Sequence record: NC_047807.1
DNA length: 44,970 nucleotides
From: Escherichia phage vB_EcoP_C
Strand: one strand, 5' to 3'
The notes under the pieces were generated by a model. That model was not told the origin of the DNA. It saw only the letters and a list, made by a program, of their open reading frames with translations, and did not search any database. Both the position numbers and the translations under genes were made by a program. Shown one piece after another: positions 828-30,766 of this stretch (position 1 is the first letter of the stretch; each line of letters opens with the position of its first letter).

Positions 828-921
828 GATTTAATCCTCATTAGTTAGTTAGGTTACATTATAGGGCACTCAAAAGAATACCCTAGGTTTAACCTATCCA
901 GACTAAGAAGCGACTACCCAT

Positions 922-8147: not shown

Positions 8148-8172
8148 TTCCTTCTATAGTGTCCGGTAATTA
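8148..8172 (-). promoter_or_regulatory. SP6-type phage RNAP promoter variant (AATTACCGGACACTATAGAAGGAAGG)
   Basis: Promoter family member overlapping the terminase stop codon; drives the paralogue pair and lysis genes. Confidence 0.6.
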
Positions 8173-9427: not shown

Positions 9428-9647
9428 ATTTAACTCCCTTCAATTGTTACGTTAATTCGCTACTTTAACTTCTACTAGTCACCTAGTAGGTCGGACTATA
9501 TCTTAGGCTTGCGCCTCCCTCTGTTTCAGACCGCTTGGCCTTACAGTTAGTCTCTACACGTTCCTGTTATTGCAACAGGCTTCGCTCGGTATTGTCTCAG
9601 TGAGAGTTCCACCGAATTAAGAGGGTTTTACGCTGGCAGAGGTGTTT
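8902..9647 (-). mobile_element. Group I self-splicing intron (about 746 nt) in terminase large-subunit gene
   Basis: Splits terminase within YIDPAG|GGKNGDETG; P1 (exon GCUGGU with intron GCCAGC 9632-9637); P10 (intron CCUCU with exon-2 GGAGG); P7 core elements GACUA (9546-9557) and AAGAUAUAGUCC (9493-9504); P9-like hairpin with GUGA tetraloop. Confidence 0.75.
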
Positions 9648-10814
9648 ACCAGCGGGGTCAATGTACATAATTTTACGGGTGACAGCGCCCCATTCATACG
9701 GTCGGGCCACAGGGCGATACATAAAGTCTGTAGGCTTATTGCCATACTTCGGTGCATCGCCAATGATGTTAATAGAGTCGTTGCTCCATGTAGGCATCAC
9801 AGGGACTTCCTCTGTACCGAATGAAGTGAAGATGAGGTTGTTCAGGCGTAGCGGATAGCGGTCAGCATCCATCATGCGAGTGTTAAGCATAAACTGAAGC
9901 TGGAACTTAGCCGCACCCTGCGAGATTTCCTTCTCAATCAGCACATCATCATCATACATTTCAGGTGCACAAGGGGCACCACTATTGCCATCCAAGCCAT
10001 ACCCTGAGCGAAGTGCTGGGTTGTCCTTCATATCCTGCACAATCATAGGTGCAAGGAAGTCGCCATAGCATTGCTCCTGCTCCACTGAGGGATAACGTGC
10101 AGTCCAGATACGAACAGAGTAACCACGAGCAGGTAGGTTATTGTAGATAGAGTTTACGTTCTGAGGAGTACCAAGGTAGATAATATCACCAAACTGGTTA
10201 ATAGATTCAAACTCCTTGGTCAGTTCCTCAAGCAAGGCACGTCCTGCCGCTGTACGAGCATTCTGCATTGACTCAACGTCATCTGCTAGGATGATATCTG
10301 CACGCGCACCCTGCATACCTGCTTCGATTGAGTAACAAGACACAGAAGGCGACTTGTCACTGCCACGTAGGGTGTAATGAATCTCAAATGCCTTAACTGA
10401 GGCACGGTCCCCTGCGTAGATGTCCGGTAGCATAAACTCAAGAAAGTCTAGGCCACGGAAGATTTTAACTACCCAACCTGCGATTTCCTCTGCTCGCTTG
10501 GCGTTTTGGGATACAACCATGATACGCTTATGCGGTTCATGAATGATACGGAATACTGTATAGATTGCTGATAGTGTTGTCTTAGCGATACCACGAGGCG
10601 CTTCGATGAGGCGATACTTGTGTCCGTAGAATAGGAACTTCAAGATATCAGCCTGCATACGAATCAGATGAGGGTTGCCTGCAATTAAGTTATGAATAAC
10701 TGTGTCTGCAAAGAGAAGCAAACCTTCCGCTGTGTAAGGAAAGGTCTGCTGTAACTCCTGTAGCATCTCCCATCTGGCAAGAGCCTCCGCTTGTGATTCT
10801 CTTGCCTTAGCCAT
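9648..10814 (-). CDS. Terminase large subunit, exon 1 (ATPase domain)
   Basis: T7 gp19-like sequence; ATG at 10814 overlaps terminase-small stop (TGATG) with AAGGAGG SD; reading frame runs into intron after ...YIDPAG. Confidence 0.85.
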
Positions 10815-11113
10815 CAATCCTCCTTAGTGAATTGAATAATCTTGCCACTTGATGCCTCTCGGATAGCCTTGAGGCGCTTAGATAGCTTGGACTCCTCCTG
10901 CTGTGCAGCGGGTGTAGCGGTAATACCATTATCAAGAACCCACTTACACATAGCTCCAATGTCTTTACCAGAGACTAAATGCAGTGCTGCATCTGGGTCT
11001 TCTTCTATAGTGTCCAGTATTGCCTGTGCTTTCTTATTAAAGATTTTGGTAATAGCACCATGTAGAATGCCAACCTCGTCTTCCGTAGCTGCATGTTTAT
11101 TGTGTACGCTCAT
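10814..11113 (-). CDS. Terminase small subunit (T7 gp18-like), about 99 aa
   Basis: Position between holin and terminase large subunit; start moved to ATG at 11113 with GGAGGAGG SD. Confidence 0.65.
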   Translation of the reverse strand: MSVHNKHAATEDEVGILHGAITKIFNKKAQAILDTIEEDPDAALHLVSGKDIGAMCKWVLDNGITATPAAQQEESKLSKRLKAIREASSGKIIQFTKED

Positions 11114-12263: not shown

Positions 12264-15200
12264 CAATCCTCCAGTTCATCTAAGCCATAACGCAATGCGT
12301 TCTGGATTCCTATTACATTAGTTAGAGGCACTAAGCGTAAAGCCCTACGTGCCACATCTACACCTTCTGTATCACCCTCTGCATATTTAGTTATAGAATC
12401 TGCTAAACGATATGCATCTTGACCAACACCTACTAGTGGTATTTGGTCTATCAAACCTTTAGTCTGAAAGCCAGCCTCATAACGGGATTGTACTAACTCA
12501 GAAGGTAGAACACCTAGGCCACCTAAGAAATCTCCACCTAGACTAAATACAGCAGTTGTACTCATCATACCCATTGCACCAAAGGCCAACCCTTTAGGCG
12601 ATAACTTCTCTTCCAAATATTCATCTTGGTCTTCTCGCCCAATAGAGTTCACATAGGCTTTTGCCGCATACACTATTGAACCCAAAGCAAACCCGTAAGC
12701 TGTCTTCTTAGCAAGACCAATTTTATCGTGGCGAATCCCTCGACCAAATTGCTTCTCACCAGATACAAGAGAGAATGACTTAAGCTGTGCAAATGTCTTA
12801 CCTAGTGCTTTGTTCATCCAGATACCTTCATCACCAATGAAGTTACGTTGGATAATTAGACCTGACTTACGACGAATAGCATTAGCTAAAGTTTCACCCA
12901 TGGCATAAGGCATTGTATCAAAGCCAAGCAAGCCAGAACCTTTAGAGTTAGCATCATAGTGCTTCTGTAGGTTAGTCATGAACTCCTGAGTAAGACCAAG
13001 TTCCTCCAGTTTCTTCTGAGGAATAATCTTCTTGCCTTCAAGGTGGTCAATGAAAGACAAAGCTATTTGCCTATTGGTCATTCGCTCCAGAGAACCCTGT
13101 GCCATGCGGAAGAGTGATAGGTTGGTTTGAGCACGACGTATTGAGTTCATGGATTGGTCAAAGTGAGCCATCATTCCTTTTACTGTGGTTACATCACCAA
13201 ACTCATCTGGACGTGCACCCTTGGTTGTTAGCCAGTTATCCTCACCAATGTAACCTACCATCCTCTCTACTTCTGCCAAGTTCTTATCTCGGAAGAAGCC
13301 ATCACCGCTCCGCAAAGCCTTAGATGTAAAGCGGAATTGCTTACCTAAAGCTATAGTGGTTGCAGCAATACCAAACTCACCCATGAAGTTAGCAAGTTCA
13401 CCCAGCTGTGCGAAGCCCATCTGACCTAAGCGAAGTACACCTGTAATGTCACGACCACGACGCAGCATTTTAGTAGACAAAGCCTGTGGGTCTGCATCGA
13501 TAGATTTACCCATAATCAAGCGAAGCCCTTCTCGCATCTGACGGATTTCTTCATCAATAGCCAGACCTGCTGCTTCATCTTTCTCTTTCAATTTAAGTCG
13601 CTTCTTTAGCTCTTCAATCTTCTCTTGTGCCTTCTTGTAATCAGGCTCTGATTGACGAATCTTAGCAGACTCCGCTTCAAATTGTGCGTGTGCTTTTGTA
13701 TCTTTAGCTGCATTTCGTGCATTTCGCTCTACAAGGTCAATTGCATTAAGTGCAGCCTGATAGGTAGAGAAACCTTGACGAGCCAAGGCAGCACCACCTG
13801 CCGCTTCCTTCATGTAGTTATCTGTTAACTCTTCCACGTTAGTATTCATAAAGTCACGCATACGAATGCCATTGTACTCTTGAGTAACATCTAAGCCTAA
13901 ACTCATCTTAGCTCGGTTAGAGATATTATCTTTGGTTTCTTTATTATCCAGAGCTTCTACCATCTTTTCAATTTCTTCATCACTGAAGCCTGCCTTGCGC
14001 ATTATTGCTTCATACTCTGCTTTAGTCTGACCAGACATAGCCTTTTCGAAACTCATACGTCCTGTCAGAGTGGCATCCACAACACGGTTTACTTGTGCTC
14101 GTGCAATTTCATCCGCTACTTCTTTTGGAATTTTACGAGCGCCGTTCTGATAAGCACGAGAGAATAACTCAATGATATCTTCTTTATCGTGCATACCGAA
14201 TTGACGACGAGCCTTCATACTGTCAAAAATATCAGGCATGTACTTATCATCTGCTTTAACCTTTTCAAACCCAGCTTCACCAGAGCGTTGACGTAATGCT
14301 AATGCTTCACGATACATAGCTTGCTGCCCCTCTGCTGCCATACGGATAGACTTAGGCGTAGCCTCATCCATACCGATGCGTACAGCTTCCCATACCTTCT
14401 CATTATATTGCTGCACATAGTGAGAGTTAGTATGGCCTGCAACTGGATTGATATTATTTTCTTTGAGCCATAAGTCAAACCCGTCATTGAAACGGTTCAT
14501 ATCAGCAGACTTCAGTCGATTCAAGTTGGTATTCTGCATAAGACTGGCAGATGCCTTTTGCATACCTAAACCTTGCGGAGACTCAAACAGGCGAGCACCG
14601 AGGCCACGAACACTAGCATCCTGAGAGGAGTGCACGACAGTCCCAAGGGCAGACATAGTTCCGGCCCAGCGGCGAGGTGTCATATCAATTGCATTACCTT
14701 CCCGCTGTAGGGTTTTCAGCAAATCTTCACCTTTGCTAGAGATATCAAATGCACCCTCAGTGAGTACCTCTTCGCCCTTAACACGCATCGCACCGATACT
14801 GTCATCAGCAACAGCACGCACATAGCGGTCCCCTGCGTCTGCACTGCGCACAATGCTCGCAGCCCTGTCATCCCCTTGCTCACTGAGCTTAGTGGCCCTA
14901 CCACGCGCTACAGCTCCAATAACGCCACCCATAGCCATACCGGAACCTAGTGCTACCATAATGTCATCTAAATCACGAGTCATGTCACCTTGGACCAATA
15001 CGGATTCAATAGCGGCATTACTCACGCCAGCGGCGATAGCGCCACGCACAGCACGGCCTACGAGTCCAACTTTAGCTGCACCACCGGTTGGAATAGAGGC
15101 AACCCAACCCACTGGGTCAAGCACAGCAGCGCCAATCGTTGCCACAGAGCCGGCCCATCCAGCCTGAGCAATGCGCTTATTGCGCTCAAGGTCTTCATCA

Positions 15201-15635: not shown

Positions 15636-18584
15636 CTACAATTTAACTTTACCTACCTTAGAGTCTTTAGCTAACTTGGTAGGTGCAGCCTCATAAACCT
15701 GATACCAGCCATCGGCTCCAATACGTTTATGCGTCCACGCAGAAACAGAGCCTGCTGGCATAGGTCCACCAAACTTAACCCACATAGAGCCATCTTCCCT
15801 CGTCTCCACTTCTGTGATCTTAGGTACACCACCAGCAGCTGCCATATTGTATGCCTCAGCGCGTCGCTTCAGTAGGCCCGGAATACGTTTACCTTCACTT
15901 GATGCAGTACCCAGCATTTCGATAAAGCCTTCCGTAAGCTTACCAGCTTTGAATGCAGCAAGAGCACGCGGTGAGTTCTGGATTCCACCTTTACCTAAAT
16001 TGTAGGTTAAATCCATCAAGCCACGTTGCTGTGCAGGATGCATCTGGTCAAACGGAATCTTCCAGTCACGAGTAGGAGGCACATGCTTCTTAGCATCTTG
16101 CTCCATAAGAGCGCGAGCCTTACTCTCTGTAAGCTGAGACATAGACCCTCGATAGGGAACTAGTTCATCGCCAATCTTAATATACCCGTTTCGCTTCTCT
16201 TCTTCCGTTAAGAAATGACCGTAACCGATAGACTCACCGTGAGCGTCTTTATATGGAGTAAAGGTTCCAGTTGCCTTATTAAAGCCAACTTTATCTTTAT
16301 TCTCATCCATAGCTAGCTTGTCATAGAATTGTTGCATATTACCTCGATAGTTAATCTCGAAGTTAGAAGGCAGATTCTCACCAGAAGCAAAAGCAGAAGA
16401 CATGAGGAAGTTAGCTAGTCCAAATTTACCAATATCTTTGGCAGTTGGTTTAGCTGGCATAGGCTCTTGTGCACCAATATCTGTACGATACGGGTGAACA
16501 TACTCGCCTTTATCTCGTTCCTCTACTTTCTTCTGATAGGCAGAATCTAGTAGTGAAGTGGTATCTAAAGAGGTTACAGGGATTACTCCAGAAAGAGGGC
16601 GACCTGCTGCACCAGCACGAATCACAAAAGTTCCTTTCTGCTCATTGTAGTCAATGTACACATCATCCTTAGTTTCCCACTCTTGAAGCTCCTTTTTCAA
16701 TTCTGGCATCTGTGTTTCTACATACCTACCAAGCGCCAGAGGGACATCGGTAGGGTTTACACCTTTCCCAACTGACATAAGCATATCAGATGCAGAAGTG
16801 TAATCACCTTTAATGAAATAGCCACCGGAAGTCTTTGCATCCTCTGATTGAGTGTAGCGTTTATTGCCCCAAGTAATTAAAGCCTTCTTGATAGAATCCA
16901 TGTTACGCATACCGCTAGACCACAACATATTGGCCTTAGCTCGTAACTCTTCTTCCGCAATAGCTTTACCTAAGTCTGACACTTCGGTTTTACCATCAAA
17001 CCAGCCAGCACCAGATACCTCATCCAGTGCATCTCCAATAGCTGAGTTGAACTTCTTGTTTTCCTTCTCAGTACGAGAGAATTTCTGCTGTGCTTCACGC
17101 GCAAACCTTGCAGCCTGCAAAGGTGTCTCTCCCATTTGTAGTGCAGTGTTGTAGTTATCCATGTAGCCATTCACCGTGTCACCAAAGACACCTCGGCTCT
17201 CTTCTGGCAACTGTTCCCACAACTGACGAATAGTCATCAACTCCTGTGGTTCGCCCTTGGCAAAGTGCTCAGGCGATAGCATAGATTCCATGGCTTTGAT
17301 ACGAGACTCAAAGGTATCATCCACTAAGCCTTTGGAGTTCATGAATTGCAGGCGCTGCACTTCCACTGCACCACGAATAGCTTCAGCCTCTTGACTGTAA
17401 GGGTCCAAGCCACGTTGCTTGATTTGCTGGTCTGCATAAAGTTGGCTATCCTGTTTGATAACATCAATGTAAGCCTTCTTCTCTTTATCAGTCTTACCTT
17501 GGAAGCCAGTCAGGCGGTCGGAGTAAAGCTCACGTCGCATATCCTGCATTGCACCTAGCTCTGCATTCTGCTTAGCCCGTTGGCGCATCAGTGCCTCTAG
17601 CTCTGGATTAGAGAAGACATAGTTACCTGTCAGATTATTAATGTGCTGTGCTCGTTCCAACAATTCTTCATCAGTTAAATCACCTGCAAGGTATGATTCT
17701 TTAACTTCGAAAGACATACGAGTTACATCAGCTACATTATTCCTAGCCCAAACTGCATTACCACTAGTGATGGCTGTGATAAGCTGTGGATTCTTAGCAT
17801 AAACAGAAACACCCTTATCGTCCTTCACATACTTCAGGGCTTCAGCCATGCTAACATCACCGCCTTGTGCAAGTGAAATTGCTCGCTGGACTAACTTCTT
17901 GTGCATCTGTTCAGGTAGTAATCCTTGAGTAAGACCTTCGCGGATTCGTTCCTGTAAAGCATAGCCAGAAGCTTCAGGGTCAATATTAGAATCCCAAGTA
18001 GAAGCCACTCGCCCGTCAAAGGTATCCTCACGGTCTGCTTGTTCACGGTCAAGTTTATGCTGGGTCCGTGTAGCCCAAATCTGAGGCTGCTGTTCTTGGA
18101 AGACATTAGTGACCATACGCATAGTATCTTTGTCACCTTGCAACTCAGGGTATTGCTGGAACAGCTTATTCTGCATCTCATTACGAGAGTCAACCATAAG
18201 TTGTGTCCACTCGTCATCCGTCCCTTGGAAACGAGTAGCCATGTCTTTCATTCGTGCTGCTTCATCATTAGCTAGCAGTTGAGCTTTGACAAGCATGTTA
18301 GCACGAGCGCCACCACGAGTTGCATCCTCAGAAGGCATTAATCCGTTATATGCCCGTTCCATTTGAACAACCTTATCTTCCTCAATCTTCTGATTAAGGA
18401 TACCAGTGGTAACATCAGCCACGCTGCTTGCTGCACGAATAAGGTCTTCGATAAATCTACTACCGGAGGTAGAAGCCACGCCAGCCTCCACACCTCCCAC
18501 TTGTTGAGGTGCAAAGGTCATGACATTAGGAGAAGTGGCCTGCACTTGTGGCAGACCTTGTACTGCTTGTCGCTCAATTGCCAT
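15636..18584 (-). CDS. Internal virion protein with lysozyme-like (GH24-type) domain near C-terminus, 982 aa
   Basis: Segment YKDAHGESIGYGHFL resembles the T4-lysozyme YKDTEGYYTIGIGHLL block; T7 gp15/16-like position. Confidence 0.75.
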   Translation of the reverse strand: MAIERQAVQGLPQVQATSPNVMTFAPQQVGGVEAGVASTSGSRFIEDLIRAASSVADVTTGILNQKIEEDKVVQMERAYNGLMPSEDATRGGARANMLVKAQLLANDEAARMKDMATRFQGTDDEWTQLMVDSRNEMQNKLFQQYPELQGDKDTMRMVTNVFQEQQPQIWATRTQHKLDREQADREDTFDGRVASTWDSNIDPEASGYALQERIREGLTQGLLPEQMHKKLVQRAISLAQGGDVSMAEALKYVKDDKGVSVYAKNPQLITAITSGNAVWARNNVADVTRMSFEVKESYLAGDLTDEELLERAQHINNLTGNYVFSNPELEALMRQRAKQNAELGAMQDMRRELYSDRLTGFQGKTDKEKKAYIDVIKQDSQLYADQQIKQRGLDPYSQEAEAIRGAVEVQRLQFMNSKGLVDDTFESRIKAMESMLSPEHFAKGEPQELMTIRQLWEQLPEESRGVFGDTVNGYMDNYNTALQMGETPLQAARFAREAQQKFSRTEKENKKFNSAIGDALDEVSGAGWFDGKTEVSDLGKAIAEEELRAKANMLWSSGMRNMDSIKKALITWGNKRYTQSEDAKTSGGYFIKGDYTSASDMLMSVGKGVNPTDVPLALGRYVETQMPELKKELQEWETKDDVYIDYNEQKGTFVIRAGAAGRPLSGVIPVTSLDTTSLLDSAYQKKVEERDKGEYVHPYRTDIGAQEPMPAKPTAKDIGKFGLANFLMSSAFASGENLPSNFEINYRGNMQQFYDKLAMDENKDKVGFNKATGTFTPYKDAHGESIGYGHFLTEEEKRNGYIKIGDELVPYRGSMSQLTESKARALMEQDAKKHVPPTRDWKIPFDQMHPAQQRGLMDLTYNLGKGGIQNSPRALAAFKAGKLTEGFIEMLGTASSEGKRIPGLLKRRAEAYNMAAAGGVPKITEVETREDGSMWVKFGGPMPAGSVSAWTHKRIGADGWYQVYEAAPTKLAKDSKVGKVKL

Positions 18585-19306
18585 TAAATACCTCTTGTTC
18601 CAGATGAATATGTGCGAGAATCAGTTAAGGCTTTACCCAATGCCTTGCCAGACTTACTACCAGTTACATAGGCAGATGCCAGACTTGGAATACCTTTAAC
18701 CAAGGTATTCATAGCAGAAGGCTTCTTAAACTCACGCATCTGCATCTGACCACCACGTTGGATAGACTTAAGCTGGTTGGTGAAATTAATCTTCTGATTC
18801 TCATAGTTATCAATGATAGTACTCTGGTTTCTGCCGCCATCTGCTGCTAAGTCATTAAGCATAGAGGACACAGAATTACCACCAGTACCAGTAGCCCCAG
18901 CAAGTAATGCAACCTGTGCTCGCTGCTGTAGCAGTGAAGCCTGATTACTGATTGCATCTGCATGATATTGTTTAGCAGCAGAACGTTCTGCGTCTGCCAC
19001 TGTCTTGTACGCCTCTTGTGTAGCAATAAGCTGCTGCCGCCATTGCTCTTCTTGTGCTTTCTTCATCGCCTTGGCTTCATCACTTCCACCAAAGAGATCA
19101 CCAATCAAGCCTAACCCTTGAAGGCCAGCACCAAGAAGGCCAGCATTAGAGAAACCAGCAGTGGAGCCACTTAGGAATCCACCTAGTGAACCTAGCAAAC
19201 CTCCGCCACCTGCGGCAGCACCTCCAGCAGCGGCTGCTGCACCGCTGCCTGCAAACATACTACCAATAGAAGACATACCAGACATAACGGCTGAACCTAT
19301 AGCCAT
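18584..19306 (-). CDS. Internal virion protein, Gly/Ala-rich (about 240 aa)
   Basis: Start moved to ATG at 19306 (AAGGAGGG SD, TAATG overlap with upstream gene); low-complexity G/A-rich N-terminus. Confidence 0.65.
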   Translation of the reverse strand: MAIGSAVMSGMSSIGSMFAGSGAAAAAGGAAAGGGGLLGSLGGFLSGSTAGFSNAGLLGAGLQGLGLIGDLFGGSDEAKAMKKAQEEQWRQQLIATQEAYKTVADAERSAAKQYHADAISNQASLLQQRAQVALLAGATGTGGNSVSSMLNDLAADGGRNQSTIIDNYENQKINFTNQLKSIQRGGQMQMREFKKPSAMNTLVKGIPSLASAYVTGSKSGKALGKALTDSRTYSSGTRGI

Positions 19307-21708
19307 TAGACCCTCCTTTTGGTTGGATTGTAGCTCCCTTCCCACTCAATATCGCGGAGCTGGAATGTGTGAGGTGATTCTACAATAATACGATAAACAG
19401 CATCCGTACTCTTAGCTCTCAGTGGGAATCTGAAGACACCTTCTCTTGGTTCAACATAACCTACTGTATTGTTGAGAGCACCACCTATACGGTTTGACGC
19501 TAGCACCCTGCGTACTTTACCACTCTTCACATTCTTAACCTCCACGGAGAAATCAGGATACATATCAAGATTAAGGTGAACCAACCCCACAACAGGTACA
19601 TCAATATAGGATACACGGTCTTGCCTATCTCTGATAACTACAGGTGTTGGTTCAAACTCTTGAGGGTAAATCTGACCAACAATAACCTTCGCTTTTACGT
19701 GGCTATCATCATGCATATCAAAGGTTGTAGACAAGGTGTTATCACCGGGATTATATTTGAATAGGAAAGAACCACCAATATATGAATCCCACCCGTCTAT
19801 TAAGATGCAATCCAAAAGCTCTGGGTTAGTAGGAGTCCAAGGAAGCGGTTCAGACACCCATTCATCTTCTGCTTTAAAATGCTTGAAGACTAACTCTGCT
19901 TGCCTATCCATCCTAATGCGGTCATTCAAACCATAGGTTAATGCATCACCCATGTCCATCTTCTCCAGATATACGCCATCCCCTCGCTCAAGGAGTAGGT
20001 AAAGTAATTCACCAGAATAAAATAGACCTCGCACCTTTGTACCTACAGGCCACTTCCATACATGCCATGCTGATTGTACACGGTCTGTTCCTTGCCATAA
20101 CCAATCATAGCAGTAGATTATGTTACGGTACTTATCGGTAGTGACAAGTAACCTGTTGACATTGGTGCTTGCTGCCATGTTGGTAATGTTACCTTCGATG
20201 AGTTTATTCACATGACTTGTGATTGCTTGTGCCTTCTTAGTGTCACTATAAGAGTCTGTATAGAACTCTCGTACACCAGAGTAATAACCATCATTAGTGG
20301 CAAACATTACCGATTCACCAGTTACTACTGGCTTCACTTTATTGTTCACTTCAAATGTTGTAACAGGCTTAAGCAATGCATTTGACTTCTCTAAAGGCTT
20401 ATCGCCTGGCAGTATGAATTGTGACTTATCAGAGAACAATACGGTAGCTCCATCTAAGGTCACTGCATGTTTTAGCTGGTAAACTTCACTCGCATCTGAG
20501 AAAATATCAAATGGGTCAGTTGCCAATGCAGAGATAACCGTATAACGAAAGAAATCGAAGAAATATGATGTACGAGAAGCAATAACCGCTTCACCTGCTG
20601 TAAAGCATAGGCGGTTCTGCACCATGAACATTCCACCTATTGTCTGGGGTACTTCCTCATCAATAAAAGAGGGCATAGGGTTAGTCAAGTCATCCCCTAC
20701 TTTACGGTCTTCCCAATCACCTTGTCTTATCTTGAATTGAGCTATGCCGTCAATGATACCTGTACGTTCAATAATGTAAGGCATTGTGCCTTTATCAAAC
20801 CCAAGTAATACATCAGCAGCTATTGTTTCTTTCCAAGACACAAGGTTTCCCTCTTTAGGCTCAGCTTGCAGCCAGTAACGAGACTCAGGTTTGCTGCCAG
20901 TAGGCCACACTTGTACTTTATAACCAGCAGGCGCACGAGAAGGGAGTAGGTCAGTAGAGCTAACTTTATTCTTGATAGCCACTAAGTCCTTACCTTTTGC
21001 ACCATCGGTAGTTGTTACTGTGAAACTTTTACCATCGCGTCTCTCTATAAATATGCTCGTACCATCTCTTTGTATTTCATAGTCATTCACACCACTCCAT
21101 TGCTGCAACTTGGAGTACAATTCAGAAGTGATACGTTCCGTTCGTATTTGTTCAACATGTTCTGCACTTCCCCCATCTGGTGTTTTAAAACTAGCAGCTG
21201 TAGTTCCATTAATTATGATAGAATAAGATGTACCGTATTGACCATATGCACAAAACACAATGGCTTTATCTCCAACTTTAGGTGACTTCCTATTACTAAC
21301 TTTAACCACTTTCCTACGGTTAAGCATAAAAGTAACATCAGCTATAGTCATGAATTGCACATCTTCCCTAGGGTTAACAACTTCAGAAAGGTAGGTCATA
21401 GGTGCATCTTGAGAGGTGACATTGCACTTGCGTCCATGCTTATCAAATATCTCTGGCACTTGCCCCTTCTTTAAGGTGAAGAAATACTCTTCATCCCCCT
21501 CACCCCTGCGATAATGGTGCGTTGCCATATTATCTGTACCTTCATCCAAGAGCTTAGCAATGTGAGTTGTACCCATGCGGGATTGAGTCCCATTCACTAC
21601 ATCAGGGACCATGTTCACCATAGTCGTACATTGGCCATCAAGACGTACCGCTGGTGGTTGCTGGCTAATCCCTTGGATTTGCCTCCCTAATGAACCTTGT
21701 ACTTCCAT
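19306..21708 (-). CDS. Tail tubular protein B (T7 gp12-like), about 800 aa
   Basis: Size and position; start moved to ATG at 21708 with GGAGGA SD, overlapping upstream stop. Confidence 0.8.
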   Translation of the reverse strand: MEVQGSLGRQIQGISQQPPAVRLDGQCTTMVNMVPDVVNGTQSRMGTTHIAKLLDEGTDNMATHHYRRGEGDEEYFFTLKKGQVPEIFDKHGRKCNVTSQDAPMTYLSEVVNPREDVQFMTIADVTFMLNRRKVVKVSNRKSPKVGDKAIVFCAYGQYGTSYSIIINGTTAASFKTPDGGSAEHVEQIRTERITSELYSKLQQWSGVNDYEIQRDGTSIFIERRDGKSFTVTTTDGAKGKDLVAIKNKVSSTDLLPSRAPAGYKVQVWPTGSKPESRYWLQAEPKEGNLVSWKETIAADVLLGFDKGTMPYIIERTGIIDGIAQFKIRQGDWEDRKVGDDLTNPMPSFIDEEVPQTIGGMFMVQNRLCFTAGEAVIASRTSYFFDFFRYTVISALATDPFDIFSDASEVYQLKHAVTLDGATVLFSDKSQFILPGDKPLEKSNALLKPVTTFEVNNKVKPVVTGESVMFATNDGYYSGVREFYTDSYSDTKKAQAITSHVNKLIEGNITNMAASTNVNRLLVTTDKYRNIIYCYDWLWQGTDRVQSAWHVWKWPVGTKVRGLFYSGELLYLLLERGDGVYLEKMDMGDALTYGLNDRIRMDRQAELVFKHFKAEDEWVSEPLPWTPTNPELLDCILIDGWDSYIGGSFLFKYNPGDNTLSTTFDMHDDSHVKAKVIVGQIYPQEFEPTPVVIRDRQDRVSYIDVPVVGLVHLNLDMYPDFSVEVKNVKSGKVRRVLASNRIGGALNNTVGYVEPREGVFRFPLRAKSTDAVYRIIVESPHTFQLRDIEWEGSYNPTKRRV

Positions 21709-22445
21709 TAACGATCCTCCCACGGACGAAGTGCCCAACTGTCATATGGTGAATGAGAGTAAGCAGGTACATTCTGAGAACCACCTGCCATAATACCGAA
21801 CTGACGCTGCGTAGGATTATGCACAAGCATATTCAATCGCTTTTGTGACATTTGTTCTGATTGCACATCCATTAGAAGCTGAGTGGCAATCTGCTGTGCA
21901 GTGGCTAGCTTAGTCTGATCTGCATCCTTAGACACAATAAACTCTACAGCAGCTTGATAGGCAATAGCCTGCATTACACTAGTAGGTAGATGCTCATATG
22001 GAAGTAAGGTAAGTAAGGTAAGACGAATCATACCATTAGCATTCACATGCTTACGCATATCAAAGGTATGACTCCATGTAGAGTAGAGCTTACCTGCTCG
22101 CATAGTCATGGGTACTTTCTTCTCACCCAAAGCATAACACTGCAATACTGCTAGGCAGTTGTTAGGTAGATTGACTTCACCATTGGTATCAGGTGCAATC
22201 TGCCAGTTTGGTTCACGATTGAACCACCAGCCACCTCCTTTGTTGTACTGGAATCGCTGGGATACGATGTCGATCATCTTGCTTGCATCTTCTGCGTCCA
22301 AGTCACCTGAGTCGAGAGAATCCACACCCTCACGACCAATAGCTCGCATACACAAGTTTACCGCTTCCAGCTTACTATCAATAATCTGGAAGGCCACATC
22401 TTCCATCATATGACCTACTTTACTGGTTTGTCTAATTACAGGCAT
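21708..22445 (-). CDS. Tail tubular protein A (T7 gp11-like), about 245 aa
   Basis: Position after capsid gene and terminator; start moved to ATG at 22445 (GGAGGG SD); the track's longer N-terminus reads through the terminator. Confidence 0.75.
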   Translation of the reverse strand: MPVIRQTSKVGHMMEDVAFQIIDSKLEAVNLCMRAIGREGVDSLDSGDLDAEDASKMIDIVSQRFQYNKGGGWWFNREPNWQIAPDTNGEVNLPNNCLAVLQCYALGEKKVPMTMRAGKLYSTWSHTFDMRKHVNANGMIRLTLLTLLPYEHLPTSVMQAIAYQAAVEFIVSKDADQTKLATAQQIATQLLMDVQSEQMSQKRLNMLVHNPTQRQFGIMAGGSQNVPAYSHSPYDSWALRPWEDR

Positions 22446-23768: not shown

Positions 23769-23792
23769 CTCCCTCTATAGTGTCCAGTAAAT
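23769..23792 (-). promoter_or_regulatory. SP6-type phage RNAP promoter (ATTTACTGGACACTATAGAGGGAG)
   Basis: Promoter family member immediately upstream of major capsid gene. Confidence 0.75.
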
Positions 23793-23797
23793 ACTGA

Positions 23798-24718
23798 TTA
23801 AAGTCCGCGAGCCATACCAGCGCGGCGGCGAGCATCCAGTCTAGCCTGATACTCAGCAGCAGCTTTCTTGTCTGTGCCGAAGCGAGAGCTAAGGGTCATC
23901 ATCTCACGCAGGTACTGCTCACGCGAGAGTGGGCCGTTGTCTTCTGATGCGGCAGCAGGTGCAGATGGTTCAATCAGGCTTGGCTTGTCATCACCTTGTG
24001 CAGCCTTACGGCGGCTCTCCAGTTCACGCACAGCGTATTGCTGAAGGTACTGGTTGCCAGATCCCATCACCGCATTGAATGCCATTAGTTCGTCATCAGA
24101 CAGCGCTTCAAGTGCCCACGCCTCAAGACGGGACCACCCTTCTTCACCACCAATTTCCTTAGAAACATCAGAGAAGCGTTGGGTATTAGCTGCTTCCAAC
24201 TCTTTAGCTGCGTTGGCTTCTTTTAGGAAGAAGGCTTCATTTTGAGCCTTAAGGCCTGACAGGTAAGCATCTACCGCAAACTTGCCAAAAGCATCATACA
24301 GTTTCTGCTTGGTTGCATCAGACAGCTCAAACTTGCCATCTTTGGCATAGAGTTCCTTGGCAACCTGCTTAGCATCAATACCTTTCTCTTTAAGGCTATC
24401 AGTAACATCCTGTGGTATATCTACTGTTACTTCATAGTCTCCGAAGAAGTATTGCACTTCCTCAGTGTCGGTCGTGGTATCATCTGGCTTAGATTCACCA
24501 TTCTCTCCGTCATTGTCTCTCGCTTCTGAAGGTTGTCCAGAAGTTTCTCCTCTGGTGTCTTCAGCAGATTGTGTACTAGCATTGTCATCTTGTACATTAG
24601 TGCTAGTATCAGCATGAACATCATTAGTAGTAGCATCAGTTGATACCTCCTTGGTTTCTACCGGATTGTCTTCAGCAATAGGATGAGTGGTTGACGGTTC
24701 AGTAAATGAGAAAGACAT
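23798..24718 (-). CDS. Scaffolding protein (T7 gp9-like), 306 aa
   Basis: Acidic, low-complexity N-terminal half; between portal and capsid; AAGGAGG SD. Confidence 0.75.
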   Translation of the reverse strand: MSFSFTEPSTTHPIAEDNPVETKEVSTDATTNDVHADTSTNVQDDNASTQSAEDTRGETSGQPSEARDNDGENGESKPDDTTTDTEEVQYFFGDYEVTVDIPQDVTDSLKEKGIDAKQVAKELYAKDGKFELSDATKQKLYDAFGKFAVDAYLSGLKAQNEAFFLKEANAAKELEAANTQRFSDVSKEIGGEEGWSRLEAWALEALSDDELMAFNAVMGSGNQYLQQYAVRELESRRKAAQGDDKPSLIEPSAPAAASEDNGPLSREQYLREMMTLSSRFGTDKKAAAEYQARLDARRRAGMARGL

Positions 24719-26268
24719 TACGCCTCCTTAAGTTCTTGTTGAATTACACCCGGAATGGCCTTAGCCACACCCTCTTCAAGCATCTGTGCTTGCTGTGCTT
24801 GCATCTGCGCTTCCTGTTCTTGCTCCATCTCTTCAGTCGATTTAAGGAATGGCAGTTCAGCAGAGATTTGACCACGTACCCAATCCATGTAATCAGGCCA
24901 CTTCACAGCAGCTAGGACAGGCTCAGGCCATTGCAAAGGCAGTGACATGTACTGAGCGAAGTTTGCCAGCTTATCCAGTTCAGCCATGCGCCCTAATGCT
25001 TCAATGCCTGTGATAATCACAGGGTCAACTAGGTCACTAGTGAATGAATCACCTGCCTCCAGCAGACCCCACATCGCTACTGGCGATTGCATAGTAGTAG
25101 CAAAGAGGGAATATACACCGCCCATGTTCTGCTCAATCTCTAACGCATCTCGCTGGATTTCTACAGCAGTAACACGTTCGGCATCACGGCGTGTCATCGT
25201 CTCCATCATGAATACGACACCGATACGGCGAGTGTACACCTCTAGAACCGCACTAATAGGTGTGAGGTCTGCATACTTACCTAACTGTACAATATGGATG
25301 TCTTCTTCTACACCAGTAACAACCTCACCAGTGCCAGAGTTAACAAAGTGGTCAACATCAGTCTGAGCACCCGGACGAATCAAGTACTTAATATCTGCCA
25401 TCAGTGCAGCACCACGGGCAACTGCTTCAGACAGGAATTGGATAACGAATAAATCACCGGAGTAATCCTCTGCTAAAGGACGACCCCAATCCTCACCATA
25501 GCTTCGCTTCCAAGTTAGCGGGATAAATGGTAGCTTTTCTGATTTGATTTTACTTACCTTACCAACAGGGATATCATCAGCAGATTGCTTGAGTTCCCAA
25601 AAACCCTCACCAAGATACTTAGCATGTGTGTACAGCTTAATGCTGTCATCTTCCTTGCATTTCTTACCTTTCAAGCCCACCTCTACCACAGCACGGGTAG
25701 CGGGGTCAAATGTACGCAAGGACTTTTCTTGCAGTAAGATAATGTCTAACAGGTCGCCATTGGTATCACGGTTAACTACGTAGTGATGCATTGGTATTGC
25801 ACTGATTGCACCTTTGCTCGGCTTGTATAGCATACAGCTGCCAGCAACAATAAGATGCTTGAATGCTTCTACTACAGCAGGCCGGAATTGACGTTGCTCT
25901 AACTCTTTCATTGCCCGTGTTTCCACTTGAGCAAAGATAGTAGCTAGCTCTGTCTTCTTCAGGCCACGCTGATTAAGAATCTTCTCACCTTGTGCAGTTA
26001 GGTCTACACGGAAGAAGGAGCGCTGTGCAGGGAATAGCACTTGCGCTAGCTTGTTGGCTAGGTGGTTAGTTGCCTGAGCACCTACACCTTGCCATCCGTT
26101 CTGCGAAGTCTCGTTATCACCTTTGTCATTCATCAGATAGGGCAAGGTTAATTTGGAGTAATGCTTCGCCCTATCAAGGAAAGAGCTACGTTTAGTGGAG
26201 AACTTCTCCCATAGCTTAGGTATCTTAGACCGCTTACCTCCATACTCCAAATCTGTGCTCTGTTTCAT
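24718..26268 (-). CDS. Portal (head-tail connector) protein (T7 gp8-like), 516 aa
   Basis: Size, position and acidic EQEQEAQMQAQQ C-terminal region typical of T7-like portals. Confidence 0.85.
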   Translation of the reverse strand: MKQSTDLEYGGKRSKIPKLWEKFSTKRSSFLDRAKHYSKLTLPYLMNDKGDNETSQNGWQGVGAQATNHLANKLAQVLFPAQRSFFRVDLTAQGEKILNQRGLKKTELATIFAQVETRAMKELEQRQFRPAVVEAFKHLIVAGSCMLYKPSKGAISAIPMHHYVVNRDTNGDLLDIILLQEKSLRTFDPATRAVVEVGLKGKKCKEDDSIKLYTHAKYLGEGFWELKQSADDIPVGKVSKIKSEKLPFIPLTWKRSYGEDWGRPLAEDYSGDLFVIQFLSEAVARGAALMADIKYLIRPGAQTDVDHFVNSGTGEVVTGVEEDIHIVQLGKYADLTPISAVLEVYTRRIGVVFMMETMTRRDAERVTAVEIQRDALEIEQNMGGVYSLFATTMQSPVAMWGLLEAGDSFTSDLVDPVIITGIEALGRMAELDKLANFAQYMSLPLQWPEPVLAAVKWPDYMDWVRGQISAELPFLKSTEEMEQEQEAQMQAQQAQMLEEGVAKAIPGVIQQELKEA

Positions 26269-26269
26269 A

Positions 26270-26479
26270 TTACACCTTCAAGCTAGAAGCTACCGGACGG
26301 ACAAGCCCGCGCTTACCTTTTGCAGATGCAGTCGCATCATCACCACCTGCACCAATCTGTATATCTTCAGCTTCAGTCTCAGGCTTACGCTCAAGCTGCT
26401 GAGCAGGAACCTTGGCTTCAATACGCGGTGCATCTTGAGCAAGACCGACAGCCTTAAATGCTTTCTTTACAATACCCAT
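26270..26479 (-). CDS. Hypothetical protein (69 aa), possibly a small virion protein
   Basis: Strong AAGGAG SD; immediately upstream of portal gene. Confidence 0.55.
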   Translation of the reverse strand: MGIVKKAFKAVGLAQDAPRIEAKVPAQQLERKPETEAEDIQIGAGGDDATASAKGKRGLVRPVASSLKV

Positions 26480-26488
26480 GTGATCTCC

Positions 26489-26950
26489 TTAGAACTTCAG
26501 GTTATACACAGTGCCAAACTGTTCAAAGCCAAGTCGCTTATACATACGTCCGACACGTTCTTCATTAATACCAGAAGCGATAGACAGGCGAACCTCGGAA
26601 CACCCACTATCGTTAGCCCATTGCTTCAAGGCTTTGATGAGGCGCATACCGAGCAGTGTCCCTCGCTTCTCTGGTACAATATAAAAGAGAATGTCAGATG
26701 CAACTCTTACAGGTGTCCAAGGGGCTAACTCGTGATAGCCAGCCCACAGAAAACCTACAATCTGCCCTTCATCTACAGCAACCCATAGGAATAAATCTTC
26801 TCTACTAAGAGATGCACAAAGGTTATGTGCGCTTTGTTCTGCATTCCATGAGGCTGAGTGGTGGGCTACAACCTTGACTTCCTCTTCCACATATTTATTC
26901 CCAAGGTTTATAATCTCAGGAATATCTAGGAATGAAGCTGGACGTATCAT
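26489..26950 (-). CDS. GNAT-family N-acetyltransferase, 153 aa
   Basis: Acetyl-CoA-binding motif-A-like block QIVGF...VRV...YIVPEKRGTLLGMRLIKALKQWA. Confidence 0.75.
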   Translation of the reverse strand: MIRPASFLDIPEIINLGNKYVEEEVKVVAHHSASWNAEQSAHNLCASLSREDLFLWVAVDEGQIVGFLWAGYHELAPWTPVRVASDILFYIVPEKRGTLLGMRLIKALKQWANDSGCSEVRLSIASGINEERVGRMYKRLGFEQFGTVYNLKF

Positions 26951-27069
26951 TGGACCACCAGTTGTGCTCTAACACAATCCATAATGTAACGCTTCACTTC
27001 ATCTACGATTAATTCTTCGTGAGTCTTAGTCACCTTCGGAGAAGAAGGCTTGAGAATCATCTCAAGCAT
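26947..27069 (-). CDS. Small hypothetical protein (start uncertain)
   Basis: ORF-track frame; track start is TTG; internal ATG with GAGGG SD chosen. Confidence 0.3.
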   Translation of the reverse strand: MLEMILKPSSPKVTKTHEELIVDEVKRYIMDCVRAQLVVQ

Positions 27070-27079
27070 CTCCATACCC

Positions 27080-27295
27080 TCAAATGAAATCGTCGGTTTC
27101 TTCTTCGTCTGTACCATAGAGTTCTTCAACCTTCTCTTGGATAGCTTCTACAGAAAGACCAAGCTCTTCTGCATCAGCTAGTAAGGTATATGGCACTTCC
27201 ATGCCACAGGATAAAGTTTCAAAGATAGCTTCTGCTACCTCAACTGCACGAGTTGCCTTCATGCTATCAAAAGAAATCTGGTTCATCTTTGTCAT
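27080..27295 (-). CDS. Small acidic protein (71 aa) with acidic C-terminus ...EEETDDFI
   Basis: ORF track; GGAG SD; strongly acidic. Confidence 0.5.
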   Translation of the reverse strand: MTKMNQISFDSMKATRAVEVAEAIFETLSCGMEVPYTLLADAEELGLSVEAIQEKVEELYGTDEEETDDFI

Positions 27296-28214
27296 GTCTT
27301 AATTCTCCAGCTTTGGGCAGACGAATGTTGCCCTTGCTTGAATCCTGAAGACCTTTTACTTCAAAGATTTTACCAATGACATTCAATCGTCCACCGTGTT
27401 TAATATCGTGGAACATCTGTTCTGCATCTGCATGAGTCCACCCTTTACCTAACATAGCTTTGATTGTCTTTCCTCCTTTCCATTTGAAAATGAGGTTAGC
27501 TACCTTACCTTTGTACTTACCTTTGCCTTCTTCAAAGCCAATACAAGTAAGGTCATAAGTTACCTTACGGACTTCTTTAGTCTGACGATAACCTTTGTGG
27601 CCTGCTTCATAATCACAGTCCAGTTTAAACACAGCACCCTCTCGGCCTGCGTCTATTTGCTCTTGCGCAAACGCTTCAACTTCTCGCTCATTATGGCAAG
27701 GAGTAATAGGAAGGATAGCGTTGTACCCGCTAAGATGAGCGCCGATGCGACGATGTAAAGCATCGTAACGTTTGAGATAAGAAACATCAGTGAATCCATC
27801 ATGGAATGCCTTAATAGTTAACATATCGAAGAAGTCAATATACAGGTTGTCTTTAATCTGCTGGCCTATGAAATCAAGTGGCTCTGTGCGATTAGGGTTA
27901 ACTACTCCAGAAAGTGCTTCAAGGTAGACATCAACAGCCATAGATTGCAACTCACCGAGATAAATGCCAGTAGGGAAAGCTGAATAAGATTCTTCCAAGG
28001 TTTCCGTGTTAGCCAGTTTCTTTCCAGTGCGTCCAAAGACACCAACGACACCATCGTTGCGAACAACCACAGCACTAAATATCCCATCTCGTTTTACCTG
28101 TGCATAACATGGAAAAGTTAATTTCTTCTCAGGTACTTCACCGCGATGTTTCACCAGCATGAATGGGTGATTGCGGTGGTCTTCTGGAAGACCTAGGAAT
28201 TGGAAGATATTCAT
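27267..28214 (-). CDS. ATP-dependent DNA ligase (T7 gp1.3-like), 315 aa
   Basis: Ligase motif I KxDG (CYAQVKRDGIF); AAGGAGG SD; C-terminus DKDEPDFF. Confidence 0.85.
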   Translation of the reverse strand: MNIFQFLGLPEDHRNHPFMLVKHRGEVPEKKLTFPCYAQVKRDGIFSAVVVRNDGVVGVFGRTGKKLANTETLEESYSAFPTGIYLGELQSMAVDVYLEALSGVVNPNRTEPLDFIGQQIKDNLYIDFFDMLTIKAFHDGFTDVSYLKRYDALHRRIGAHLSGYNAILPITPCHNEREVEAFAQEQIDAGREGAVFKLDCDYEAGHKGYRQTKEVRKVTYDLTCIGFEEGKGKYKGKVANLIFKWKGGKTIKAMLGKGWTHADAEQMFHDIKHGGRLNVIGKIFEVKGLQDSSKGNIRLPKAGELRHDKDEPDFF

Positions 28215-28907: not shown

Positions 28908-28930
28908 TTGTTCTATAGTGTCAACTAAAT
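28908..28930 (-). promoter_or_regulatory. SP6-type phage RNAP promoter (ATTTAGTTGACACTATAGAACAA)
   Basis: Promoter family member overlapping the phosphoesterase stop codon. Confidence 0.7.
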
Positions 28931-29932
28931 CTTACCAATCCAGCGATTGTCATTATTGGTCTGCATCGGGACAATGTGCGGCACACCCTCCAGAATAACC
29001 ACACAACCTAATGCTGGCTTGTATTTGGACTCACGACCATAGGCAAATGCACGAGATGACTCATCAATCAAACAGCCTCCCTGCACAGCCCAATACTGTT
29101 CATGGGTGTTACGTGCATACTCCACCGACATCTTCCCATGCAAGTGACCACACACTAAGTTCATGCGCTCATGTGCTGCATCTGCTAGGACAGCGCCAGC
29201 AGGTTGATGCTTGAACGCCACCTGCTCACCATTAGGTAGCTCAAGTACATGCGTATGCTGCCAGTCCCACTGGTCGCCACCTCCCTGCGGGAAGAAGACT
29301 TCACGGTATGTGCGCAGGTATTGCACAGGGATGCCATGAGCACTGGCCTTACGGAAATGTAAGGAGCCATGATTAGAGTGGCAGATGCGCATTACAGGGA
29401 ACATCTTATGTAATTTACGCATGAAGATACGAGCCTTCTCTAACTCCATACCAGCCGAATCCAGATTAGGATCTGACGTATGGAATGAAAGTGCGTGCTT
29501 GTCCGCCTCATCACCAAGATGAACTACAGTGTCTGGACGGTAACGTGCTGCCACCGCTGCCAGAAACTCTAATGTATCTGGATGCTCATAAGGTGCATGG
29601 GTGTCAGGTATTACCAGTACACTTCGATGAGGCGAGTCAGGCAATGGTACAATAGCCAAATCCTCGTAGCGGTCAGGAGTCCTGAGCTTACGTTCTTCTT
29701 TGATAGCACGGTTCGCAATAGCCAAGGTTTCATACGCCTCGCCATTCTTCTTCCGCTTTTCAAATTGTTTGGCCCAATACTTTGCAAGCTGCCTTGTAAC
29801 TGTAGTCCCGTGTGTGTTATCTGAGAGAATAGACGCCATTAGGCGATAGTTGATAGTGCCATCATCCCGCTTTGCACTTTCAACTGCTTCTTCTACCTCC
29901 TTATTAGTAAACAAGTTTCTAATCTTACCCAT
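28925..29932 (-). CDS. Calcineurin-like metallophosphoesterase, about 335 aa
   Basis: Motifs DTH, GDEAD, SNHG, GHLH in canonical order; ATG overlaps HNH endonuclease stop (TAATG). Confidence 0.7.
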   Translation of the reverse strand: MGKIRNLFTNKEVEEAVESAKRDDGTINYRLMASILSDNTHGTTVTRQLAKYWAKQFEKRKKNGEAYETLAIANRAIKEERKLRTPDRYEDLAIVPLPDSPHRSVLVIPDTHAPYEHPDTLEFLAAVAARYRPDTVVHLGDEADKHALSFHTSDPNLDSAGMELEKARIFMRKLHKMFPVMRICHSNHGSLHFRKASAHGIPVQYLRTYREVFFPQGGGDQWDWQHTHVLELPNGEQVAFKHQPAGAVLADAAHERMNLVCGHLHGKMSVEYARNTHEQYWAVQGGCLIDESSRAFAYGRESKYKPALGCVVILEGVPHIVPMQTNNDNRWIGKI

Positions 29933-30363
29933 TATTCTTTCCAAACCCTCCCGCTTACAATATCACTAATGGTAGCAGGTGAGACATTATATAGCTTAGC
30001 TAGTCGTAACCTCTCACCTTTCTTATTAGCAACATATGTTGCCCTGATAGCACGTACAACATCCCAAGTTAGTTTAGCACGATTATTATTTTCTCCTGCA
30101 AAGCTAGCACGTCTGCCTCGATCTATCATATCTTGTATGTTGTCCTGCTGTGTACCAGATATTAAGTGTGCAGGGTTTATACACCTTGCATTATCACAAG
30201 TGTGTCTAATCACTACATCCTTTATATCCTCTATAGAAAGGCCGTGGTGCTCTGCATAGACCACGCGATGAAGTAATTGTAACCTCTTACTAGGTTTATG
30301 CCACGACCTGTAGTAACCTAATTGATTTAAGCATTTATAATGCCCGTGGTCTATACAGTCCAT
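29932..30363 (-). CDS. HNH homing endonuclease, free-standing (about 143 aa)
   Basis: HNH block HHGLSIEDIKDVVIRHTCDNARCINPAHL plus C-terminal HTH-like tail; start moved to ATG at 30363 with AAGGAG SD. Confidence 0.8.
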   Translation of the reverse strand: MDCIDHGHYKCLNQLGYYRSWHKPSKRLQLLHRVVYAEHHGLSIEDIKDVVIRHTCDNARCINPAHLISGTQQDNIQDMIDRGRRASFAGENNNRAKLTWDVVRAIRATYVANKKGERLRLAKLYNVSPATISDIVSGRVWKE

Positions 30364-30364
30364 A

Positions 30365-30766
30365 TCATACTCCTTTCTTTCTTGCATAAGCAAGGCGTGC
30401 CTTACGGTTCTTAGCCTCGCGCTTCTCTGCCTCCGTTTGATGTTTGTGATATAACTTATCTGTCTGAGGCGTACTATGTAACTTCCAGTATTCATACAGT
30501 CGTTCTAACCATTGAAGCTGGAAGTAACGGTTATTACCTGCCTTGCCATAACCAGAGATAACACCCTTAATCTTCCCTTCCGCACCATTGCAGCCTCGGC
30601 ATACAACAGCGCGGCAGAATCCTGTCTCATGGTCATGGTCAAGTACACGGTTTACAGGTGTGACAGCTTTGAGACTGCCGCCACACAGAGGGCATTTCCA
30701 GCCTTGCTTATCCAGCAATTCCTTCTTATAAGCTGCCACCTCCGATGCTTTTAATTTGCTAACCAT
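30365..30766 (-). CDS. Endonuclease VII-like junction-resolving nuclease, 133 aa
   Basis: Cys-rich zinc site (CPLCGG...CRGCNG) and DHDH motif typical of the T4 endonuclease VII family. Confidence 0.7.
   Translation of the reverse strand: MVSKLKASEVAAYKKELLDKQGWKCPLCGGSLKAVTPVNRVLDHDHETGFCRAVVCRGCNGAEGKIKGVISGYGKAGNNRYFQLQWLERLYEYWKLHSTPQTDKLYHKHQTEAEKREAKNRKARLAYARKKGV

Follow-up and report, generated by a model that had tools for sequence, protein, structure and literature searches.

An intact GNAT acetyltransferase beside the ejection-protein and portal genes of a K1E-like coliphage: candidate roles in assembly and host modification

Rac, the GNAT-type product of gene 28 in the Pseudomonas phage LUZ19, raises global lysine acetylation when it is expressed alone and causes the removal of the C-terminal domain of the host RNA polymerase alpha subunit, and a mutation in its acetyl-CoA pocket abolishes the effect (PMC7552054). 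The phenotype is specific to one genus, and the GNAT found at the same location in phage LKA1 does not cause alpha cleavage (PMC7552054). In SIO1- and phiRIO-1-like phages, the IVP-A slot, which is that of T7 gp13, is occupied by the gene of a small non-structural acetyltransferase; gp13 itself matches acetyltransferases by HHpred, is needed for morphogenesis and is not retained in virions (Hardies et al., PMC4819975), and the link between gp13 and acetyltransferases has likewise been drawn elsewhere (PMC6775973). Neither gp7 nor gp13 is listed among the proteins detected in the virion proteome of phiPsa17 (PMC4517105). T7 gp7.3 has been described as a small ejected ‘wedge’ protein at the junction of adaptor and nozzle (PMC11784390; bioRxiv 10.64898/2026.05.18.726046).

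Acetyltransferase genes have also been labelled in phages of the K1E/SP6 type, where K1E gp27 is annotated as a ‘hypothetical acetyltransferase’, D_4 of Escherichia phage vB_EcoP_D as a ‘putative acetyltransferase’, and SP6 gp27 is labelled as well. Our literature searches found no functional study of SP6 or K1E gp27. Hundreds of short-tailed phages, whose hosts are enteric, plant-associated or marine, retain an intact enzyme of this kind next to the genes of ejected proteins, and we ask here why, starting from the genome of Escherichia phage vB_EcoP_C. The window, i.e. the whole stretch of 44,970 nucleotides that was analysed (NC_047807.1), is a complete K1E-like podovirus genome of about 45 kb; all of its genes lie on the minus strand, and it was read as its reverse complement.

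Gene 27 and its transcription unit

The 1.1 kb around the GNAT gene are 100% identical to vB_EcoP_D, a Vectrevirus (Molineuxvirinae) with E. coli K1 as its host, and 96–99% identical to K1E-type phages. The encoded protein is identical to K1E gp27 and to D_4 of vB_EcoP_D and shares 75% identity with SP6 gp27; length, position and neighbours all agree, and it is the same gene. Gene 27 is thus an already known, annotated acetyltransferase gene of K1E/SP6-type coliphages and, as a feature, an ordinary one. Its product exceeds the gathering thresholds of three Pfam GNAT models (PF00583, 41.1 bits vs 20.7; PF13508, 39 vs 27; PF13673, 26.4 vs 23.6), and the PHROG 1249 profile matches residues 1–151 at E=2.5e-54, with the orthologous position also in agreement. 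These matches and the gene map (Table 1) uphold the initial annotation, in which a complete GNAT had been placed between the ligase cluster and the portal gene. Structure prediction, named there as a check, yielded an AlphaFold2 model (42-sequence alignment) with a pLDDT of 88.9 and the canonical order of elements, b1-a1-a2-b2-b3-b4-a3-b5-a4-b6-b7. A 177-aa open reading frame (ORF) on the plus strand (26195–26728) overlaps gene 27 and was rejected as unsupported, since homologues and annotations are all on the minus strand and the family HMM matches the minus-strand frame only.

The acetyl-CoA site is well preserved across the family. Among 141 diverse members, the conserved residues of this site are D86, Y90, V91, P93, R96, G97, A/G101, W111, G127, Y137, G141 and G146. 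Motif A of gp27 reads D86..F89-Y90-I-V-P93-E-K-R96-G97-T-L-L-G101-M-R-L104, and its D86, Y90, P93, R96 and G97 are conserved at 75–98% in this set; motif B reads G127-I-N-E-E-R-V-G-R-M-Y137-K-R-L-G141-F, with G127 conserved at 82%, G141 at 98%, and position 137 occupied by Tyr in 74% and by Phe in 11%. The loop R96-G-T-L-L-G101 aligns with R-G-Q-G-I-G of human SSAT2 (PDB 2bei), i.e. with its R-G-x-G-x-G loop, and Y137 aligns with the Tyr of the ‘LYKALG’ motif of the same enzyme. A tyrosine at this position is the usual general acid of GNATs. Against the textbook Q/R-x-x-G-x-G/A motif, positions 1, 2 and 6 of R96-G97-T-L-L-G101 fit, whereas position 4 is Leu instead of Gly, which is the sole departure of gp27 from the textbook motif. 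The family consensus of this pyrophosphate loop is R-G-[GST]-x-x-[AG], and the Leu is probably tolerated because the loop binds through its backbone amides. That gp27 is an intact GNAT, an already annotated core gene product of SP6-like phages, is certain; it is very probably catalytically active with acetyl-CoA.

Table 1. Features of the vB_EcoP_C genome at and around gene 27
Feature	Position	Strand	Details
GNAT N-acetyltransferase CDS (gene 27)	26489..26950	-	153 aa + stop, ATG start; PHROG 1249 member
Motif A of gp27	26639..26695	-	residues 86–104: strand beta4 and beta4-alpha3 pyrophosphate loop
Motif B of gp27	26525..26572	-	residues 127–142: helix alpha4
gp28 (K1E gp28), T7 gp7.3 homologue	26270..26479	-	69 aa; phrog_9033 + phrog_1320
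Portal (head-tail connector) gene	24718..26268	-	PF12236 E=3.7e-87; phrog_449
Scaffolding protein gene	23798..24718	-	last in transcription unit; K1E gp30 annotation
Small ORF (K1E gp26)	26947..27129	-	phrog_6507
Small ORF (K1E gp25)	27080..27295	-	phrog_5860
ATP-dependent DNA ligase gene	27267..28214	-	PF01068 + PF14743; phrog_114
SP6-type promoter, nearest upstream of GNAT	28913..28930	-	ATTTAGTTGACACTATAG; 1 mismatch to SP6 consensus
Next SP6-type promoter downstream	23775..23792	-	ahead of capsid gene
Internal virion protein B-like gene (T7 gp14 class)	18584..19345	-	phrog_805 + phrog_457

Gene 27 is tightly embedded in a late operon. The stop codon of gp26 and the start codon of the GNAT overlap (ATGA), an arrangement that implies coupled translation; gp28 starts 9 nt past the GNAT stop TAA, its Shine–Dalgarno sequence AAGGAG overlaps this stop, and a spacer of 1 nt separates the gp28 stop from the portal start. 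Because gp28 is the first virion gene, the placement of the GNAT immediately upstream of the virion structural module, as originally described, holds as well. The C-terminal motif of gp28, GKRxLVRPxxSSLxV, is common to T7 (GGKKSLSVARSSGGGINI), K1F, Era103, phi-A318, Njord and LUZ19 gp29. Transcription proceeds in the order DUF3310 gene, 63-aa ORF, ligase, gp25, gp26, GNAT, gp28, portal and scaffold. A search of the whole genome with the SP6 promoter consensus returned 10 matches where 0.02 would be expected by chance; nine are on the minus strand. No further promoter and no convincing terminator was found between the promoters at 28930 and 23792, so that the GNAT gene shares its transcript with the ligase, gp28, portal and scaffold genes. 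Scans for sigma-70 promoters and terminators near gene 27 showed no enrichment over shuffled sequence. Two of the 10 promoter-like matches have three mismatches and an odd placement, one at 847–864 (+), on the non-coding strand near the genome end, and the other at 14956–14973 (-), within the gene of a 1102-aa internal virion protein.

Relatives, distribution and synteny

The family is large. A word-based search gave 43 clusters with at least 53% identity to gp27, many of them on contigs of about 44–46 kb, and a profile search of 1.84 billion representative proteins gave 5,797 relatives at E≤1e-3, of which 1,225 reached E≤1e-10; nearly all of the 150 matches listed are about 150 aa long. By tblastn, the gene is present in 248 phage records, including Molineuxvirinae, Colwellvirinae and the Zobellviridae phage SIO1, as assigned from the taxonomy lines of the individual records. 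Within the SP6-like clade, the GNAT is found at 60% identity or more in 135 phage records and the portal, at the same cutoff, in 140, i.e. gene 27 is essentially universal in these phages. The dN/dS of gene 27 against 27 IMG/VR relatives is 0.03–0.16, and the gene is under strong purifying selection. Its GC content is 0.448, compared with 0.450 for the genome. The matching GC content, the low dN/dS and the 135 vs 140 records led us to reject a recent acquisition, whether as an accessory gene (moron) or as a resistance gene; gene 27 belongs to the core genes that the SP6-like clade has inherited vertically.

Gene order is conserved well beyond this clade. The order ligase, small ORFs, GNAT, gp7.3-like gene, portal, scaffold and capsid is kept in Era103, phi-A318 and Njord, and the shorter order GNAT, gp7.3-like gene and portal is seen in these three phages as well as in LUZ19, T7 and K1F; GNAT, gp7.3-like ejection protein and portal recur in this order in four Autographiviridae subfamilies. 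Two metagenomic podovirus contigs carry the GNAT one or two genes upstream of the portal. PHROG 1249 is a phage-specific GNAT family that podoviruses keep inside late morphogenetic operons. Two metagenomic members have unusual lengths: P0193 (321 aa) was called as a GNAT with a 170-aa low-complexity C-terminal extension, and P0082 (277 aa; L049:3-836) as one extended by 150 aa at its N-terminus, with a gp7.3-like gene and a portal gene coming next after it. Both may be either true fusions or gene-calling artefacts.

Rac, likewise a GNAT, occupies the slot of gene 27. LUZ19 has the order RNA polymerase, gp27, gp28 (Rac), gp29 (a gp7.3-like particle protein) and portal, and Rac shares with the coliphage gp27 the GNAT fold signature, the place directly ahead of a gp7.3-like gene and the portal, and a motif A (Y-V-x-P-x-x-R) that aligns with that of K1E-type gp27. 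It is, however, a member of PHROG 3986 from a phage of another host, Pseudomonas, with about 14% identity to gp27 of PHROG 1249. BLASTP of gp27 against Rac was not significant (E=4.7), and gp27 had no match to phrog_3986. The deep profile of the gp27 family aligned with Rac by hhalign at E=3e-5 over 93 columns, 1249 is the second-best PHROG of Rac, and Rac was the sole ORF matched by the gp27-family HMM in the 17–43.5 kb of LUZ19 (E=5.4e-4). By these comparisons, the relationship is remote, and gp27 falls outside the Rac sequence family.

T7 has the order 6.7, 7, 7.3, (7.7, an HNH gene), 8, and K1F is alike, so that T7 gene 7 (‘host range’, phrog_2746) shares the slot of gp27 and Rac. Its product has no Pfam or NCBIfam match, and it models as a GNAT fold. 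T7 gp7 nevertheless differs from gp27 in lacking helix alpha4 and in having a variable, unconserved ‘EADSKG’ in place of the R-G-x-G-x-G loop; it is probably a degenerate GNAT and not a working acetyl-CoA enzyme. Comparison of the gp27 family with T7 gp7 by hhalign was not significant (E=0.023–0.07), which leaves the fold comparison as the only informative one. Our literature searches returned no published statement of T7 gp7 as a GNAT or acetyltransferase. In T3-like phages, gp7.3 is present while the GNAT of the gene 7 slot is absent.

A second slot for such proteins lies behind tail tubular B. Roseophage SIO1 gp26.2 (L007:2974-3435) matches phrog_1249 at E=2e-36 and the gp27 family by hhalign with 99.8% probability (E=2e-30), by which it classifies unambiguously as a gp27-family member, and its gene is flanked by tail tubular B and the internal virion proteins, i.e. 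in the slot of T7 gp13 (‘IVP-A’). T7 gp13 and the SIO1-type genes thus follow tail tubular B, whereas gene 27 precedes the gp7.3-like gene and the portal; gp27 matches the gp13/IVP-A class in its small size, its acetyltransferase fold and its adjacency to a gene for an ejection protein (gp7.3). T7 gp13 (PF11090, phrog_308) lacks acetyl-CoA motifs and has no detectable sequence similarity to the gp27 family: hhalign between gp13 and the family was not significant (E=0.045–0.17), a PDB profile search returned nothing, and the link between T7 gp7 and gp13 was likewise not significant. A relation of T7 gp13 to the gp27 family is suggested by the HHpred results in the literature together with synteny. 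The beginning of T7 gp13, ‘MMTIRPTKSTDF’, resembles ‘MIRPAxxxDI’ of the family without a significant alignment.

The gp13 HMM found no homologue in the six frames of the vB_EcoP_C genome (best E=0.34). The IVP-B-like gene of this phage overlaps the tail tubular B gene (19306–21738) at the 3' end of the latter, and neither gp13 nor any other ORF lies between the two; in LUZ19 and phi-A318, too, a gp13 homologue is missing, and tubular B is followed by IVP-B with no ORF in between. Genomes of the SP6, phiKMV and phi-A318 types lack gp13, with a GNAT upstream of gp7.3 in vB_EcoP_C, LUZ19 and phi-A318, whereas T7 has gp13. The distribution of gp13 and of the slot-7 GNAT is complementary in this comparison (vB_EcoP_C, LUZ19 and phi-A318 vs T7).

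Cellular relatives were also recovered. Four proteins with tandem GNAT domains (P0065, P0068, P0075 and P0088) are among the best matches of the gp27 family (E=3e-26 to 1e-20). In all four loci the gene immediately ahead of the tandem GNAT encodes a giant repeat protein (1,400 to >2,400 aa), which carries cadherin/Big_9 repeats in three of them. A C39-ABC transporter and an HlyD-type membrane fusion protein (type I secretion) are encoded downstream in three loci, with HlyC nearby in two; the contig of the fourth ends before the secretion-gene region. This setting fits enzymes that modify a protein before its export. Literature searches found no description of tandem GNATs in type I secretion loci.

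Candidate substrates of gp27

Comparison with characterized GNATs did not single out a substrate. Neighbour lists based on the structure of the gp27 model were flat, so the fold by itself cannot reveal the substrate. The best AAC(6') model of NCBIfam scored 29.7 bits against a cutoff of 140 and the others 16–21 against 225–325, the ArsN1/phosphinothricin N-acetyltransferase models scored 30.4 against 170 and 26.9 against 210, RimI (TIGR01575) 25.6 against 86.4, and PRK03624 32.9 against 124. With all scores far under their cutoffs, membership in the AAC(6'), ArsN1/PAT, RimI and MshD groups was rejected, and no characterized GNAT subfamily can be assigned to gp27; compared with SSAT2, PA4866 and the phosphinothricin acetyltransferases, AAC(6')-Iy, Hpa2 and Ard1, gp27 has no subfamily-level membership. 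The label ‘aminoglycoside acetyltransferase’ on the Njord homologue is unsupported. The PADLOC models of anti-phage defence had no match to gp27 at E≤0.01, and a defence-related assignment was dropped on that ground. O-acetylation of the K1 capsule was likewise set aside, since the family is equally present in phages of Salmonella, Klebsiella, Proteus, Erwinia, Vibrio and Pseudomonas. The three kinds of substrate proposed initially, namely host proteins, structural proteins of the phage and small molecules, all remain plausible, except that aminoglycosides are disfavoured by the AAC(6') scores (at most 30 bits vs 140–325). With the neighbours and relatives of gp27 taken into account, the plausible choice is reduced to two classes of target, ejected virion proteins and host proteins.

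We tentatively favour gp27 as a non-structural protein acetyltransferase of the assembly phase that acts on ejection proteins, because of the tight coupling to the gp7.3-like gene, the IVP-A placement in SIO1-type phages, the complementary absence of gp13 and the cellular relatives. The enzyme would use acetyl-CoA during assembly and acetylate an amino group, at an N-terminus or on the side chain of a Lys, in at least one small ejected phage protein, with the adjacent gp7.3-like gp28 and the gp14–16-like internal virion proteins as candidate targets. Acetylation would precede the loading of these proteins into the particle, and gp27 itself would not be packaged. It may thereby be the enzymatically active counterpart of T7 ‘IVP-A’ (gp13), encoded ahead of gp7.3 and the portal instead of IVP-B, and additional acetylation of host proteins would be compatible with this role. 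On the other side, no acetylated T7-like virion protein was found in the literature examined, and the cryo-EM papers on gp7.3 and gp6.7 are silent on acetylation (PMC11784390; bioRxiv 10.64898/2026.05.18.726046). The T3-like phages, with gp7.3 and without a slot-7 GNAT, indicate that gp7.3 does not need such an enzyme, the conserved gene order within Autographiviridae may reflect common descent and not a functional link, and the only experiment on a protein of this slot, that on Rac, points to host targets.

Takeover of the host in the manner of Rac is nearly as likely as assembly acetylation of ejection proteins, if by itself somewhat unlikely, and has the only experimentally grounded precedent; the two are not exclusive. 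Here, gp27 would acetylate host proteins in mid-infection and so shut down or redirect host functions, possibly including a host defence protein as an anti-defence measure. The effects of Rac expressed alone and their loss in the pocket mutant, the shared slot, and the profile-level matches that single out Rac in LUZ19 all speak for such a role, while the remoteness of the relationship, the genus-specific cleavage of alpha and the LKA1 GNAT that does not cause it weaken the analogy. The family also sits in late structural operons and, in SIO1-type phages, in the middle of the virion gene block, which is unusual for a takeover gene, and the lack of a PADLOC match also counts against this role. 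Less likely than either, and improbable overall, is a small-molecule acetyltransferase that detoxifies or modifies a metabolite, for instance a polyamine, an amino-acid analogue or an anti-phage natural product such as an aminoglycoside. The best PDB and NCBIfam matches do include SSAT2 (thialysine/diamine), phosphinothricin/ArsN-type and AAC(6') enzymes, the conserved acidic residues E23, D36 and D86 would fit an amine substrate, and the Njord relative bears its aminoglycoside label, but the family scores given above are far under cutoff, and one environmental toxin is hard to invoke for a gene fixed in virion blocks across enteric, marine and plant-associated hosts. An N-terminal acetyltransferase of the RimI/Naa type, capping a phage or ribosomal protein such as the Met-Gly/Ser/Ala start of the gp7.3-like protein, is very unlikely: gp7.3-like proteins begin with MG, MS or MA and RimI is a weak match, yet such starts are common and uninformative, the RimI score is far under cutoff, and capping would be a special case of assembly acetylation and not a distinct explanation.

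A broader extension of assembly acetylation, which we regard as doubtful, is that podoviruses share an ancient assembly factor of acetyltransferase fold for their ejection proteins, which would still be catalytic in SP6/K1E gp27, Colwellvirinae and SIO1-type phages, would have diverged in Rac with host targets gained or additional, and would have degenerated in T7 gp7 and gp13. In such a scheme, gp27 would acetylate the gp7.3-like wedge and/or the gp14–16-like proteins before packaging, and the bacterial tandem GNATs beside type I secretion cargo would do the equivalent for exported giant proteins. If true, this would show for the first time that an enzymatic post-translational step is necessary for building a podovirus ejectosome. 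The cross-family picture that joins the slot common to gp27, Rac and the GNAT-fold T7 gp7, the link from SIO1 to IVP-A and the complementary absence of gp13 is a useful, unproven synthesis. If ejection proteins are modified, the long-obscure T7 genes 7 and 13 would be explained and a chemical step would be added to ejectosome assembly; if host proteins are targeted as by Rac, phage-driven acetylation would extend to therapeutic phages of E. coli, Salmonella and Klebsiella.

Other features of the genome

A 95-aa ORF (7437–7724) matches phrog_2725, ‘acetyl-CoA acetyltransferase’ (K1E gp42). It is without a Pfam match, and a thiolase would have to be very much longer, so that the label looks like an annotation artefact copied from one phage record to the next.

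HNH endonuclease ORFs occur at two further places. One, of the HNH_3 type (29932–30495), lies between the endonuclease VII gene (30365–30766) and the metallophosphoesterase gene (28925–29944) and overlaps both as listed. It is probably a mobile insertion in vB_EcoP_C, because the K1E record AM084415 has no separate gene between gp21 and gp22. The other, an HNH homing-endonuclease ORF (8894–9427), lies between the two ORFs into which the large terminase gene is split (9597–10817, phrog_17672; 8170–8952, phrog_15524), and K1E annotates the same arrangement as 40A, 40.5 and 40B. This 2.8-kb stretch (8170–10817) is covered to at least 80% in only 12 of 126 related records, which indicates that the HNH insertion in the terminase is sporadic.
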